A stretch of DNA of 64,000 bases from Patescibacteria group bacterium (GTDB taxonomy: Bacteria > Patescibacteriota > Minisyncoccia > UBA6257 > GWB1-50-10), in assembly GCA_038065455.1 (NCBI GenBank), contig JBBTQX010000002.1, forward strand, positions 1 through 64,000. The letters run 5' to 3'. Made by a program: the position numbers and the translations under genes. The notes beneath the pieces are model-generated. The model worked only from the letters and a program-made list of their open reading frames with translations, was not told where the DNA came from and did no database searches. Positions 3,484 to 53,950 of the stretch are shown piece by piece (the stretch's first letter is position 1; every line of letters begins with the position of its first letter).

Positions 3484-3774
3484 TTAATCTAAAATCGCAA
3501 GGATATCATCCTCATCGCCGACCAGATATTTTTTCTTCTCGACTTCTATTTCATCGGGACCGTACTTCTTGAAAAGCACCCGATCGCCGATTTTGACCGA
3601 CATTGGGACTCTTTCTCCTTTATCGTTAAGTTTGCCGGGGCCGACAGCCACGATTTTGCCCTGCATCGGTTTTTCCTTTTCCACCGTATCCGGCAGAACT
3701 ATTCCCGATTTAGTGATTACTTCTTCCGCAAGCGGCTCGATGAATAAATGATTAGATAGTGGTTTGAAATTCAT
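3484..3774 (-). CDS. groS: Co-chaperonin GroES
   Basis: FKPL...TKSGIVLPDT...VAVGPG...DILAI. Confidence 0.98.
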   Translation of the reverse strand: MNFKPLSNHLFIEPLAEEVITKSGIVLPDTVEKEKPMQGKIVAVGPGKLNDKGERVPMSVKIGDRVLFKKYGPDEIEVEKKKYLVGDEDDILAILD

Positions 3775-3785
3775 GCTAATTATGT

Positions 3786-3853
3786 ATAAATTTTCGAGTC
3801 TGTAGATGATGAAAATTTATCTACAGAATCGAGCACCCCGCCGTCGGCGGGGT
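3786..3853 (-). repeat. Family C structured element, short copy in the groES leader
   Basis: Near-identical to 41416-41477 and 41551-41563; GC hairpin plus two interleaved stems. Confidence 0.8.
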
Positions 3854-35620: not shown

Positions 35621-35908
35621 ATGTATCCCGTTAGAGACATTTCTATGTATTACAATTACGTTTTAAGAAGCAAAAAAGATGGGAAATGGTATACTGGCTA
35701 CACGAATGATCTACGGAAGCGCTTTAGCCAGCACAATAGCGATAAATTCCCTCAATGGACCAAAAATCGGGGTCCTTTTGAAATCATATACTATGAAGCC
35801 TGCAAAGATCTGCAAGATGCAAGGTCGAGGGAATATTATCTAAAAACAGGAATGGGTAAACGTTATATCAAAAATAGGCTAAAGCGCTTCCTGTCTCTAA
35901 CGGGATGA
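35621..35908 (+). CDS. Small GIY-YIG nuclease family protein encoded inside a family A element
   Basis: YYNYVLRS...WYTGYTNDLRKRFSQHN...YYEA...ARSREYYLK; its first and last codons are formed by the terminal repeats. Confidence 0.92.
   Translation: MYPVRDISMYYNYVLRSKKDGKWYTGYTNDLRKRFSQHNSDKFPQWTKNRGPFEIIYYEACKDLQDARSREYYLKTGMGKRYIKNRLKRFLSLTG
35625..35906 (+). mobile_element. Family A element, nuclease-encoding copy
   Basis: 15-bp perfect TIR ATCCCGTTAGAGACA / TGTCTCTAACGGGAT; same termini at three other loci. Confidence 0.85.
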
Positions 35909-39309: not shown

Positions 39310-40056
39310 TTATTTTTCTTTCTTTTTCTTTTCGGGTTTGCCGGAAATCAATTCCGCCGGAACTACTTCGATGGCCAGAACTTTGTCGAAATGGTCTTTC
39401 AAAATATTGCTCGCCTTGTGGAGCGCCTCCGAAGGGCTAATGGAGCCGTCGGTCTCTATTTCCAATTTCAAGCGGTTATAATCGGTGCGGTCGCCCACGC
39501 GCATATCTTCCGAGTGGAAGGATACCCGGACAACCGGGGAAAAGATGGCATCAAGCACGATCGTGCCGACCGAAAGCCTCTCCATCCGGCGGGATTCGCT
39601 CATCACGTAGCCCAAGCCCTTTTCGACGGTGATTTCCATATCCAAATCGGCGGACTTTTTCGAAAGAGTCGCGAGATGCAAATCCTTGTTGATTACCCGC
39701 ACGAGCGTGGAAGATTCGATATCCTCCGCCTTCACTTCCTTCTCGCCTTTCACGTGAAGTTTTAAAGTCTGCGGCTCATCGGCGGTAAAATGAAAGCGGA
39801 CTTTCTTCAGGTTCAACGTGAACTCCACGATATCCTCCACCATGCCGGGCAAAGTCGAAAATTCATGGTCTATATTCTTAATCTTAATCTGAGTAATAGC
39901 CGAACCCGGAAGCGAGGAAAGGAGCGCGCGCCGAAAAGCATTCCCCAAAGTGACGCCATAACCGGTAAAAAGACCTTCAATGTAAAAAACACCGATATTG
40001 TCCTTTTCGGAAATTTTCTTGACCTCGACCGCTTCGCTGATATGTGTATATTTCAT
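39310..40056 (-). CDS. rpoA: RNA polymerase alpha subunit (NTD only, 248 aa)
   Basis: GYGVTLGNAFRRALLSS, HEFSTLPG, GLGY, DAIFSPV, ETDGSISP. Confidence 0.96.
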   Translation of the reverse strand: MKYTHISEAVEVKKISEKDNIGVFYIEGLFTGYGVTLGNAFRRALLSSLPGSAITQIKIKNIDHEFSTLPGMVEDIVEFTLNLKKVRFHFTADEPQTLKLHVKGEKEVKAEDIESSTLVRVINKDLHLATLSKKSADLDMEITVEKGLGYVMSESRRMERLSVGTIVLDAIFSPVVRVSFHSEDMRVGDRTDYNRLKLEIETDGSISPSEALHKASNILKDHFDKVLAIEVVPAELISGKPEKKKKEK

Positions 40057-40074
40057 TTTTTTGTTTTATAAAAT

Positions 40075-40674
40075 TTAACGCGAATAGAATTGGCCGACCA
40101 CGTTTATATCGAAAGGTAGTTGCACTCCGGTAACGGGCGGTTTTGCCACGCACTCGCCTTTCAATTCCTCCGCTTTGAGCTTAAGCCACTCAGGCGGGGT
40201 GTATTGCTTCAACCGGAGTTGAATATCATCGAAAATCTTCGCCGAGCGGGATTCGGGCCGCACAGCAATAATGTCTTTAACCCTAACATAATAGGAAGGA
40301 ATTGTCACTTTTCGGCCATTCACGTGGATATGGCCGTGGGAGACGAGCTGGCGGGCGATTCTCGGAGACTTCGCGAATCCCAAAAGAAAAACCACGTGGT
40401 CGAGGCGGCTTTCGAGCTTGGTCATAATGCCGTCTTTGTCGGAATTCCGGAACATTCTCATCATCTGATGATTATTCAGCCCGTAAAGAATTTGGATTTT
40501 CTGTTTTTCCTGGAGCTGCTTTCCGAATTCGGAAACGGAGTGGCGCGCCTGGCCGTGCTGGCCCGGGCGGTAAGGATGGCGTACCATCGCGCACTTCGGC
40601 GAATTACAGCGGTCTCCCTTGAGGAAGAGTTTGATGCCCAGCGATCTTTCTTTTTTCTCTTTGATTCTTTTCAT
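40075..40674 (-). CDS. rpsD: 30S ribosomal protein S4
   Basis: KLFLKGDRC, PGQHG, QLQEKQK, LESRLD, ARQLVSHGHI; start set at the ATG abutting the element. Confidence 0.96.
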   Translation of the reverse strand: MKRIKEKKERSLGIKLFLKGDRCNSPKCAMVRHPYRPGQHGQARHSVSEFGKQLQEKQKIQILYGLNNHQMMRMFRNSDKDGIMTKLESRLDHVVFLLGFAKSPRIARQLVSHGHIHVNGRKVTIPSYYVRVKDIIAVRPESRSAKIFDDIQLRLKQYTPPEWLKLKAEELKGECVAKPPVTGVQLPFDINVVGQFYSR

Positions 40675-40796
40675 CCCGTTTAGAGACAGGATACGCTTAA
40701 GAAGCATATCCGTGAAGCATTAGCCGATTCGACTTTATTGGATTCTATTGATTGTTTGATAATCATGTTATTCATAAGTTTGATGTCTCTAACGGG
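40675..40796 (-). mobile_element. Family A element (nuclease-less) at the rpsD start codon
   Basis: CCCGTTTAGAGAC...GTCTCTAACGGG (one extra T); ATGAA on both sides. Confidence 0.85.
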
Positions 40797-40809
40797 ATTC
40801 ATATTTTTA

Positions 40810-40952
40810 CCAGGCAGTGAAAATGCGATTGCAAATCGTGATTGAATCGACGATTCTCGCTATTTCCAATGACCTTTTATTTATATTCATATGTTTTGAT
40901 ATTATGATGGTTTTCGATTTGAATTCAATCTAATCGCATTTCTACTGCCTGG
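40810..40952. mobile_element. Family B element at the rpsK stop codon
   Basis: CCAGGCAGTGAAAATGCGATT...AATCGCATTTCTACTGCCTGG; TAA on both sides (- strand). Confidence 0.78.
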
Positions 40953-41402
40953 TTAAACCCTTCTGGTCTTGGCCGGACGCGGTCCGTTGTGCGGAATCGG
41001 CGTCACATCCTTGATGGACAGTATATTCAAGCCCTTGCCGGCGAAAGAACGGATGGCGGAATCGCGGCCGCTACCCACGCCGCGCACGAAAATCTCCACG
41101 GTATTCGGGCCGGTCTTTTCCAATTTCTGGGCAATGGCTTCGGCGACTTTGGAAGACGCGAAAGGAGTCGCCTTCTTGGGTCCGGAAAATCCCAAAGAGC
41201 CAGCGGACATCCATGTAATCACGGCACCCTTATCGTCGGTTACGGTAATAATGGTGTTATTATAGGTGGCTTGAATATAGATACGGCCGTTTTCCCAGTG
41301 CTGTTTGGATGTGGACGAAGATTGCTTAGCCGGCGCCTTTTCGGCCGTCCCCGCTTCCTTCACCGCTTCGTCTTTGGTTTTTATGACTTTTTTCTTTCCC
41401 AT
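40953..41402 (-). CDS. rpsK: 30S ribosomal protein S11
   Basis: ATYNNTIIT, KKATPFAS, GVGSGRDSAIR, DVTPIPHNG. Confidence 0.98.
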   Translation of the reverse strand: MGKKKVIKTKDEAVKEAGTAEKAPAKQSSSTSKQHWENGRIYIQATYNNTIITVTDDKGAVITWMSAGSLGFSGPKKATPFASSKVAEAIAQKLEKTGPNTVEIFVRGVGSGRDSAIRSFAGKGLNILSIKDVTPIPHNGPRPAKTRRV

Positions 41403-41415
41403 TTGCCGATTATAT

Positions 41416-41563
41416 ATGAATTTTCGAGTCTACAGACGATGAAAATTCATCCATAGAATCGAGCACCCCGCCATCATCCCCGACTTGGAGCAGGATATTT
41501 TCTTTCATTATGATTTTCGTTATTTTATTGTTTTTCATATTTTTAGTGTAATGATGGCGGGGT
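41416..41563 (-). repeat. Family C element between rpsM and rpsK with a 42-codon mini-ORF (41410-41538)
   Basis: ACCCCGCCATCAT/ATGATGGCGGGGT 13-bp IR plus the motif shared with the groES leader. Confidence 0.8.
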
Positions 41564-41573
41564 AAGTGTTCCC

Positions 41574-41957
41574 TTATTTCAAATCGACTTTCCGCTTGCC
41601 ACTACCGGCCGTCTTCCTGACGTTGCCGCGCACCGTCCGGGAATTCGTTTTCGTCCGCTGGCCGCGCACCGGAAGCTTTCGCAAATGACGCACGCCGCGA
41701 TAGGCTTTAATATCTTTCAAGCGAGCGATGTTCTGTTTTATCACTTGCCGCAACTCTCCCTCAATCTTGTAGTTCTTCTCTATCATTGATTGGATGCGGT
41801 TCACCTCGTCCGGCGCCAAATCCTTCGCTCGTTTTTGGAGGTCGATTTTCGCGCCGACCAAAACCTTGGCGGCCAAGGTCGGGCCAATGCCGTAGATGTA
41901 GCCCAAGGCCACGTAGATTTTTTTGTTATCGGGTATGTTTACTCCGGCGATTCTCAT
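41574..41957 (-). CDS. rpsM: 30S ribosomal protein S13
   Basis: MRIAGVNIP, YIYGIG, YRGVRH..LPVRGQRTKTNSRT. Confidence 0.98.
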   Translation of the reverse strand: MRIAGVNIPDNKKIYVALGYIYGIGPTLAAKVLVGAKIDLQKRAKDLAPDEVNRIQSMIEKNYKIEGELRQVIKQNIARLKDIKAYRGVRHLRKLPVRGQRTKTNSRTVRGNVRKTAGSGKRKVDLK

Positions 41958-41959
41958 AA

Positions 41960-42076
41960 TTATCCTTGTCTTTGTTTATGCCTCGGGTTCTTGGCACATA
42001 TGACGTAAACCCGCCCTTTTCGACGGACGGTCTTGCAAACGCTGCAGATTTTTTTTACCGATGCTCTGACTTTCAT
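41960..42076 (-). CDS. rpmJ: 50S ribosomal protein L36 (missing from ORF track, 38 aa)
   Basis: Hand translation [38 protein letters not shown]. Confidence 0.97.
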
Positions 42077-42196
42077 CCCGTTAGAGACAGGATACGCTTA
42101 AAAAGCGCATCCGTGATATGTCGCTTGGTTTGATTATTCCGACCTGTTGGTTATTCATATTGATACATTATTCAAAATTTGTTTGTCTCTAACGGG
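42077..42196 (-). mobile_element. Family A element (nuclease-less) at the rpmJ start codon
   Basis: 15-bp perfect TIR ATCCCGTTAGAGACA/TGTCTCTAACGGGAT; ATGAA on both sides. Confidence 0.87.
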
Positions 42197-42208
42197 ATTC
42201 ATAAAACT

Positions 42209-42436
42209 TTACAATCTTCGCACGATTCGTCCCCGTTTGTCCAGGATGTTCGCCATCTCCACCATAACCCTGTCTCCGGGGATAACCCGGATGCGGTTGA
42301 TTTTAAGCTTGCCGGCGGGATGCGCTAAAATGTCTTTTTCTTCCCCGTTTTCAAGTTTGACCTTCACGCGGAAAAGCAAACCCGGCAGTGCCTCCACCGC
42401 TATTCCCTCAATCCTGACTAAAGGCGTATTTTCCAT
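42209..42436 (-). CDS. infA: Translation initiation factor IF-1
   Basis: EG...EALP...FRV...ILAH.AGK...RIRVIPGDRV.VE...RGRIVRR. Confidence 0.93.
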   Translation of the reverse strand: MENTPLVRIEGIAVEALPGLLFRVKVKLENGEEKDILAHPAGKLKINRIRVIPGDRVMVEMANILDKRGRIVRRL

Positions 42437-42451
42437 TAACAAACAGAGTGA

Positions 42452-42480
42452 ATTTTAGACAAATACAGATTTTTTGTCAA
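42452..42480 (-). promoter_or_regulatory. Promoter of the infA-rpmJ-alpha cluster
   Basis: TTGACA-N17-TAAAAT on the - strand. Confidence 0.7.
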
Positions 42481-42525
42481 TTTTTTAATCTATAAATCGT
42501 CTTTAATATCAGTTGTGGATAACTA

Positions 42526-51646: not shown

Positions 51647-51662
51647 TTTAAATTAGTCTATG

Positions 51663-51686
51663 GGTGGTATAATTGACTATACCACC
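51663..51686. repeat. Family D palindrome, copy 3 (contains the doxX stop codon)
   Basis: GGTGGTATAATTGACTATACCACC. Confidence 0.75.
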
Positions 51687-53920: not shown

Positions 53921-53950
53921 CTAGGTGGTGTCTTTAAAGACACCACCTAG
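53921..53950. repeat. Family D palindrome, copy 4
   Basis: CTAGGTGGTGTCTTTAAAGACACCACCTAG, perfect 30-bp palindrome. Confidence 0.85.

Follow-up and report, generated by a model that had tools for sequence, protein, structure and literature searches.

Two stacked inverted-repeat elements with mini-ORFs in the rpsK–rpsD spacer of a Patescibacteria group bacterium and their relation to small GIY-YIG nucleases

Miniature inverted-repeat transposable elements (MITEs) that are co-transcribed with their neighbours are represented in bacteria by the Correia elements of Neisseria, the pneumococcal RUP and the cyanobacterial Nezha, and the known MITEs derive from insertion sequence elements with DDE-type transposases. 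Rickettsia palindromic elements (RPEs) are inserted in frame within coding sequences, and the protein incorporates them. Mycobacterial interspersed repetitive units (MIRUs) consist of tandem direct repeats that lack inverted ends, and to our knowledge they have no nuclease partner. MIRU has been described as a mobile repeat at a start codon, whose internal open reading frame (ORF) is coupled at −4 nt, and for translational coupling in general two standard models have been set out: an upstream ribosome unfolds an inhibitory structure, or reinitiation takes place at the short spacing (Brown and Wade 2025, J Bacteriol, PMC12548453). Another related system is that of the Ssn single-strand nucleases, in which a small single-domain GIY-YIG nuclease gene has the dispersed NTS/SRM hairpin repeat on both sides; Ssn is defined as the cd10448 clade, and the layout of a nuclease between repeats was likened by the authors to an insertion sequence (Chenal et al. 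2025, Nat Commun, PMC11893778). The present work deals with two repeats, A and B, that fill the spacer between the ribosomal protein genes rpsK (S11) and rpsD (S4) in a stretch of 64,000 nt (contig JBBTQX010000002.1, positions 1 to 64,000, hereafter the window) from the 654-kb, 10-contig genome of a Patescibacteria group bacterium (GCA_038065455.1).

In this genome, 278 nt separate rpsK and rpsD, and two dispersed inverted-repeat elements, placed end to end, occupy the whole spacer. The genes and all features of the junction belong to the minus strand. The rpsK coding sequence (40953–41402) ends with TAA at 40955–40953, and this stop doubles as the 5' TAA flanking element B, a family B copy of 143 nt (40810–40952), which is nearly all palindrome, has TAA on either side and inverted ends CCAGGCAGTAGAAATGCGATT / AATCGCATTTTCACTGCCTGG (a terminal inverted repeat of about 21 nt). 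Its mini-ORF of 27 codons, MNINKRSLEIARIVDSITICNRIFTAW with a stop, is read from 40890 to 40807, starting in the apical part of the B hairpin, which is predicted to be open, and stopping on the 3' TAA, with the 5' ATG of A 4 nt further on. The intervening AAAT (40803–40806) is, to judge from the sequence and from relatives, the sole leftover of an ancestral rpsK–rpsD spacer of 4–5 nt. The 5' copy of the duplicated target ATGAA (40798–40802), predicted to be unpaired, provides the start of the A mini-ORF and is followed by the body of the family A element, 123 nt long (40675–40797), with inverted ends TCCCGTTAGAGACA / TGTCTCTAAACGGG (its terminal inverted repeats are also given as TCCCGTTAGAGACA / TGTCTCTAACGGGA). 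The A mini-ORF of 40 codons, MNPVRDIKLMNNMIIKQSIESNKVESANASRICFLSVSCL with a stop, is read from 40802 to 40680 and is open through the entire element. Its TAA is separated by 5 nt (ACGGG) from the rpsD ATG at 40674, and ATGAA, with which rpsD (40075–40674) begins, is the second, 3' copy of the duplicated target.

The mini-ORFs, the spacings of 4 and 5 nt and the positions of the rpsK TAA and the rpsD ATG given in a preliminary description of this locus are all exact in the sequence. That two distinct repeat families are stacked here, as was claimed there, is confirmed both by the sequence and by the dispersed copies in the 654-kb genome. DNA contigs from run X9 (40645–40829 and 40814–40975) and run X8 (40814–41300) match the junctions with 0 differences, so the stacked arrangement is not an assembly artefact; neither run was flagged as a possible source run, and X8 shares a study with one flagged sample.

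In our opinion, the spacer was probably built by two successive insertions, and the elements are likely to be tolerated because translation passes through them, the ORFs forming a relay onto rpsD. It is established what the elements are, that the target was duplicated, that relatives have empty sites and that the relay persists more often than chance would allow. From the sequence we infer that the mini-ORFs may be translated and act at the level of RNA and ribosome, and that rpsD may depend on them.

The history of the insertions can be followed in relatives. Both rpsK and rpsD were located in 29 of them, four of the same genus, where the spacer measures 16 nt (G004), 11 nt (G003), 4 nt (G001) and 11 nt (G002); it does not exceed 24 nt in 22 of the 29 relatives. 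A very short ancestral spacer had been expected in the preliminary description, and the 4–16 nt in all four congeners agree with it and indicate that both A and B are recent insertions. Removal of B with one TAA and of A with one ATGAA leaves TAA-AAAT-ATG, close to TAA-AAAC-ATG of G001. In the closest relative, G004 (S11 98.7% and S4 96.5% identical), the first 14 bases of the 16-nt spacer CCAGGCAATAAAAAAC (locus L002) agree with the B 5' end at 12 positions. This spacer seems to be what deletion or excision left of B, and its resemblance to B suggests that B arrived before the split from the G004 lineage and A after it. Runs X9, X10 and X11 also have contigs in which rpsK and rpsD are joined by the G004-like short form.

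A second family A copy in the same operon lies on the start of rpmJ (42077–42202, minus strand) and has two mini-ORFs joined by an ATGA overlap. This site is empty in G004, which has AGTTTT-ATGAA-AGTCAG, versus the filled AGTTTT-ATGAA-(element)-ATGAA-AGTCAG in the genome studied. The fourth and fifth duplicated bases co-vary on both sides of other copies (ATGGA twice and ATGAG once in this genome, ATGGA in L038 and ATGAG in L007 of the relatives). Together with the empty rpmJ site, this points to a 5-bp target duplication ATGRN for A. Repeats of 4 bp flank several B copies (TATG, TAGA, TAAA, TATA, TTTG and CAAG), and only TAA is found at the rpsK–rpsD junction and at 5–6 other sites, which suggests a target duplication of 3–4 bp. 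The stack in this essential operon is real, with empty sites in the nearest relative, and had been read correctly in its essentials.

Occupancy of other start codons varies within the genus. The starts of ssb and rpsR are both filled in G000, only ssb is filled in G003, only rpsR in G002 and neither in G001, and in G004 the ssb site is empty and that of rpsR possibly bears a decayed remnant. This patchy distribution indicates that the elements are often gained and lost. In two other genera, different families with related ends (ATGAGTCCCGTTAATAATAG... in L006 of G007 and ATGCCCCGTAAAACTACATCGAT... in L026 of G019) are independently situated on the rpsD ATG. Spacers of 35–150 nt made of short periodic units, e.g. 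CACGAAT or ATTCGTG, a different type of repeat, were noticed between rpsK and rpsD in L008, L016, L017 and L019 and between infA and rpmJ in L025.

The copies of the elements were collected by iterated nhmmer searches of the 654-kb genome. Family A comprises 17 full copies of about 131 nt and two long copies, all with matches on one strand only. Family B is represented by 23 loci, 16 full (about 125–148 nt) and seven partial, and is nearly palindromic, hence its matches on both strands. A third family, C, has three copies, one of them between rpsM and rpsK. The two stacked elements possess the features of MITEs, namely small size (123 and 143 nt), no complete transposition gene of their own, terminal inverted repeats, target duplication and many dispersed copies; the inverted ends of these elements are 14–21 nt long.

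The long copies disclose the probable parents of these repeats. A full-length family A element at 35621–35908 of the window (plus strand) contains a single 95-codon GIY-YIG ORF, which begins at the 5' ATG and whose TGA overlaps the ATG of a 414-codon host gene, without a match in the Pfam scan. The domain PF01541 was recognised in this ORF with an E-value of 5.5e-16, above the curated cut-off, and the closest solved structures are the UPF0213 proteins 1zg2 (E 3.3e-12) and 1ywl. The second long A copy (C8:28384-28668) encodes an identical nuclease and is one base short at the 5' end, and a long B copy (C2:77642-77957) has a nuclease gene inside its inverted ends, split by a frameshift. Identity between the A and B nucleases is 59% over 34 residues and 40% over 45. 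Because the nucleases of the long forms are homologous, A and B are different elements of one kind. The two families had been called unrelated, which stands for the DNA, where similarity does not go beyond chance, and not for the full-length forms. An interior peptide seemingly shared by A and B (KQSIESNKV / KKSIESNKI) was rejected as a sign of kinship, since its best score of 26.3 bits is no better than chance (shuffled maximum 28.2 bits). A third GIY-YIG homologue in the same genome (C8:92154-92369) shares 36% identity with the nuclease of family A over 74 residues.

On this evidence, A and B are gene-less, MITE-like derivatives of elements of about 290–320 bp, whose sole gene codes for a small UPF0213-like GIY-YIG nuclease. 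The longer elements with the same ends carry this one ORF only, which does not belong to a recognised class of transposases, and the nuclease may mobilise the elements. Like the bacterial MITEs, they are short, non-autonomous and multicopy, have inverted repeats and target duplications and occur inside operons. Unlike the known MITEs, they come from a parent whose only protein is a GIY-YIG nuclease of about 95 residues, family A occurs exclusively at start codons, and an ORF relay is kept across copies. The likeness to Ssn/SRM consists in the nuclease ORF of A lying between and running through the same inverted ends as those of the gene-less copies, and in the nuclease of B being inside the ends. 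The differences are that the nearest solved structure belongs to a UPF0213 protein, that Pfam gives generic GIY-YIG only, and that the NTS repeats are short hairpins and not elements of 120–145 nt with ORFs. Neither "start codon" nor "Patescibacteria" occurs in the main text on Ssn (PMC11893778). No account of such elements was found in full-text searches of the literature outside subscription journals and supplements: the matches listed for GIY-YIG mobile elements with inverted repeats at start codons were mostly fungal mitochondrial genomes, translational coupling through bacterial MITEs gave no match, and the matches for GIY-YIG repeats in Patescibacteria were irrelevant judging by title or abstract.

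The distribution of the two families differs. Family A was also found in G001–G003; a BLAST search for family B in five relatives gave no match. A pattern search for the B terminal repeat gave hits in 18 of the 96 genomes belonging to the taxonomic family of this bacterium (10 of 43 genera), with 34 matches in the genome studied and at most eight in any other, while the reversed pattern, used as a control, gave one match in total.

The position of family A is strictly connected with gene starts: its 3'-terminal ATG opens a same-strand gene of 38–1207 codons in 17 of 17 copies. The hosts recognised by Pfam are RpoC, LeuRS, TrpRS, FtsH, SMC, SecF, a PBP transpeptidase, SSB, S18 and iPGM, as well as ribulose-phosphate epimerase, an AI-2E transporter, a TraG-like ATPase, a glycosyltransferase and an oxidoreductase; S4 (rpsD) and L36 (rpmJ) were identified separately from the Pfam scan. 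ATGAA opens about 25% of 634 crudely called gene starts of this genome. Family A may seek start codons, or only the copies landing there may survive; the sequence fits either.

The relay was defined as reading from the 5' ATG to a stop, with a restart at ATG, GTG or TTG no more than 10 nt away, repeated as necessary, and was regarded as passed when the stop falls −4 to +10 nt from the host ATG or the frame enters the host gene. The A copies of relatives were reduced to 16 distinct sites by removing five duplicate loci and then to 14 by dropping L039 (a split long copy) and L011 (ends not matched). The relay is passed by all 17 copies in this genome (5.5 expected from interior shuffles) and by 13 of the 14 in relatives (5.0 expected), in total by 30 of 31 versus about 10.6. 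It was proposed earlier that an ORF ends beside the following start, and for family A this turns out to be a non-random, family-wide property. The result is robust to the gap limit: with 5 nt, 15 of 17 and 13 of 14 copies pass, and with 15 nt, 17 of 17 and 14 of 14; when ATG is the only restart allowed, 29 of 31 pass versus 6.5 expected. A single ORF crosses the whole element in 11 of the 17 copies (1.5 expected) and in five of the 14 from relatives (1.65 expected; tail frequency about 0.017, copies treated as independent). NTGA overlaps account for seven of the 16 internal junctions between stop and restart. The final stop lies at +4 nt from the host ATG in 23 of the 31 copies, at +5 in three and at −4 in three; one copy is fused in frame, and in one the final stop is absent. 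All three frames through the A 3' end are safe, giving TGA overlapping ATG, TAA-N4-ATG or continuity with the host frame.

Initiation in this genome seems to proceed without Shine-Dalgarno (SD) sequences. SD-like motifs precede 8.7% of the 634 crudely called starts versus a background of 9.4%, i.e. they are not enriched, which makes an A-rich open start the normal signal here; positions −12 to −2 of the gene starts are A-rich and G-poor. A search of the genome with a short motif of the 16S 3' end gave no match. For the spacer RNA, two long hairpins are predicted, each with the inverted ends paired at its base (−85.8 kcal/mol, z −6.9), and the A and U of the rpsD start codon are paired in the predicted stem of the element A ends. 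The predicted unpaired probability is 0.25 around the host ATG versus 0.59 around the 5' ATG, the same order being obtained for 16 of 17 A copies. Directly 5' of the host ATG is the G-rich CGGG, unlike the A-rich starts of the genome. The paired host ATG, the open 5' ATG, CGGG and the SD-less context fit both of the standard models of translational coupling (PMC12548453).

Element A has a subterminal 10-bp hairpin GGATATGCTT-CTT-AAGCGTATCC (40689–40711, minus strand), and in family A this hairpin keeps 10 pairs via compensatory changes at positions 1, 5, 6 and 9. Two A copies of different subfamilies (C4:4790-4938 and C6:7384-7532) share an 18-nt palindrome (CCTGCCTGCGCAGGCAGG) within the loop of this hairpin; it adds exactly six codons, and the mini-ORF remains open. 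No terminator-like site was found on the gene strand of the spacer. A scan of the whole window against Rfam at the gathering threshold gave two tRNAs only, and the matches obtained for the region with E up to 10 were all at chance level; none of the three repeat families is recognised by Rfam, and a known RNA family in the spacer was ruled out. The alpha-operon S4 leader RF00140 (Alpha_RBS) reached 13.4 bits versus a gathering score of 38, its match being elsewhere, at 41928–41959.

For family B, the placement of an ORF end beside the next start is a more modest regularity, found in 11 of 15 copies. The orientation of B agrees with that of the downstream gene in 13 of the 16 full copies; two more match both strands equally and would agree if flipped, and one is without an adjacent gene. 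The stop of the upstream gene adjoins the B 5' boundary in seven of 16. A gene start lies no more than 40 nt away in these 15 copies, and relative to it the terminal ORF (16–35 codons) of the 11 mentioned ends at −4 to +7 nt. The median length of the B terminal ORF is 27 codons versus a null mean of 6.6 (combined p about 9e-5, copies treated as independent), and in 10 of the 11 the predicted openness of the ORF start exceeds the average for the element. In G099, which belongs to another genus, a B copy has a 27-codon ORF, MKTNKRSVIMIEIVDSITICNRIFTTR, with its stop 4 nt before a gene beginning MRIKKGDNVKILTGK, which looks like that of L24.

The course of events that we regard as probable is as follows. 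At an ancestral junction of about 4 nt (TAA-AAAT-ATG), B would have inserted first, on the TAA of rpsK, and A later, on the rpsD start ATGAA, duplicating these five bases. The duplicated 5' ATG of A would retain the native A-rich, SD-less initiation context and, being predicted to be unpaired, would serve as the starting point for a ribosome. Crossing A, this ribosome would melt the stem of inverted ends that otherwise pairs with the rpsD ATG, stop at the TAA 4–5 nt before that ATG (in the full-length form, at the TGA overlapping ATG) and reinitiate on rpsD. Where mutations break the frame, restart codons at the stop, often in ATGA overlaps, may sustain the relay. The mini-ORF of B would start in the open apical loop, cross the 3' arm and stop on the flanking TAA 4 nt before the ATG of A; in this way it may feed ribosomes into the ORF of A or hold the hairpin melted.

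A number of observations weigh against this translational relay. The gap of 62 nt between the rpsK stop and the start of the B mini-ORF interrupts a chain from rpsK; of the chain of mini-ORFs suggested previously, the ORFs and their junctions are present, and its continuity with rpsK is not. The remaining four of the 15 B copies comprise two with the host ATG at the boundary and two without such an ORF. Predictions for the 11 copies leave the host ATG that follows B accessible in most cases (0.37–0.95), and the ORF of B may for this reason be dispensable. Owing to this accessibility and to the 62-nt gap, the contribution of B at the rpsK–rpsD junction is the weaker link, with less support than that of A. 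The relay rule itself (up to 10 nt and three restart codons) was the author's choice, and the copies are akin, so that the shuffle tests overstate independence and the tail frequencies are not true probabilities. In 25 of the 31 copies, the pairs of the subterminal A hairpin were counted (six were dropped because of a differing register or anchor), and 229 Watson–Crick, 10 G-U, 9 A-C and 2 other pairs reveal no strand-specific wobble bias; without an excess of G-U over A-C, nothing indicates selection of this hairpin at the RNA level. The gene strand of the elements contains two weak promoter-like sites (9/12 matches). Finally, no contig of RNA library X11 spans the spacer of this strain; the library includes a 391-nt contig of a G004-like relative linking rpsD to rpsK over the short spacer, which, the library being assembled, is no proof of transcription.

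Some of these observations would suit another explanation, which we consider rather improbable on the whole: the mini-ORFs are inert relics of the nuclease frame, and S4 arises from independent initiation at its own ATG during breathing of the stem, or else from a promoter located within the elements. In an organism without SD use, any open A-rich ATG may initiate, the weak promoter-like matches do lie inside B and A, and the MITE form and the nuclease ORF have common ends, so an open frame could simply be inherited. However, promoter-like sites in the region 40000–42500 are not above chance in number (five versus 3.5 ± 2.1), and the host ATG is the paired one, preceded by CGGG. Inheritance of an open frame is also at variance with what happened where that frame was lost: premature stops occur at about 11 different positions across 15 copies, with a restart within 10 nt in 14 of these, which speaks for several separate repairs of the relay. 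When the start is shifted 1 or 2 bases out of frame, the relay is found in only 7/31 and 3/31 copies versus 30/31.

It is highly improbable that the mini-ORFs encode functional small peptides selected for themselves. Their recurring ends (...CNRIFTAW with a stop in B, MNPVRD... together with ...SRMRFLSASCL and a stop in A) could be taken as a sign of it, but the conserved peptide ends coincide exactly with the conserved nucleotides of the inverted ends, the interiors vary freely, the terminal frames differ, 14 of the 30 relay-passing copies have 2–3 ORFs, and Pfam gave no match in either peptide. Barely conceivable is a dedicated regulatory leader of rpsD in place of mobile DNA, either an S4 autoregulation site or another structured cis-regulator, because, for all the strong structure of the spacer RNA (z −6.9) and the role of S4 as translational repressor of the alpha operon in E. 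coli, the same two sequences lie before or between at least 30 unrelated genes, a dispersal that already contradicts it, both are absent at this junction in the four same-genus relatives, and no Rfam family reaches the threshold.

The relay through mobile repeats, which we prefer, has its nearest parallel in MIRU, also an apparently mobile short repeat at a start codon with a coupled ORF, the coupling here being predicted from the sequence. In contrast to MIRU, the elements have inverted ends, a duplication of 5 bp (A) or 3–4 bp (B) and a full-length form encoding a GIY-YIG nuclease. Moreover, the final spacing is mostly +4 nt and not −4 nt, and the host is of the Candidate Phyla Radiation (CPR) type, without SD use. 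It may be concluded that the elements work like MIRUs but are not members of that group. With RPEs they have in common that palindromic mobile repeats survive at essential genes via an open reading frame; unlike RPEs, they are located between a stop and a start and have separate mini-ORFs.

Eleven additional codons, MLLKRILSLNG, are in frame with S4 (40675–40707, minus strand), as had been reported, and represent a putative extension, with an ATG at 40707 inside the subterminal hairpin of A. They result from an extra A in the 3' arm of the element (TCTCTAAACGGG), which is the same in three of the 17 family A copies. The S4 N-terminus is MKRIK..., and the extended form would read MLLKRILSLNG-MKRIK..., MLLKRILSLNGMKRIK...

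Several other features of the operon and of the window were noticed. The rpsM–rpsK spacer (41400–41538, minus strand) contains a family C copy with a conserved ORF, ...GVLDSMDEFSSSVDSKIHI and a stop, ending 7 nt before the rpsK ATG. The other family C copies, at 3774–3845 of the window and C5:14483-14555, are placed in the same way before genes starting MNFKPLSNHLF and MSKIGKQPIKIP, and a TATAAT-like box is situated 6 nt before each ATG at the copies of this family. The rpoA ORF (39310–40056, minus strand) has 248 codons only and is short for a bacterial alpha subunit. A GC-ended palindrome of 26–32 nt (GGGTGGTATAC...GTATACCACCC) occurs four times in the window, at 168–199, 1203–1234, 51661–51686 and 53922–53947.

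A and B may form an undescribed class of miniature DNA transposons with a UPF0213-type GIY-YIG nuclease of about 95 residues as the sole gene, a proposal to which we give even chances. Type A would integrate at ATGAA starts, borrow the host initiation signals for its nuclease and return the ribosome to the host gene via a stop–start overlap, and the relay would be kept by selection in the gene-less descendants. If this is true, serial insertions could accumulate in essential ribosomal operons of streamlined CPR genomes without SD use. A role in mobility would then be possible for the widespread and uncharacterised UPF0213 group of small GIY-YIG proteins.

For annotation, these data explain long "leaders" in CPR ribosomal operons and warn against calling the mini-ORFs genes or lengthening S4 by 11 residues. 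The copies also offer a natural series of mini-ORF designs for termination–reinitiation without SD sequences, including a single ORF, ATGA-linked chains and spacings of +4, +5 and −4. If the relay works, selfish DNA would colonise the most constrained sites of a minimal genome, the starts of rpsD, rpmJ, rpoC, ssb, leuS and ftsH, without cost, being transparent to translation.

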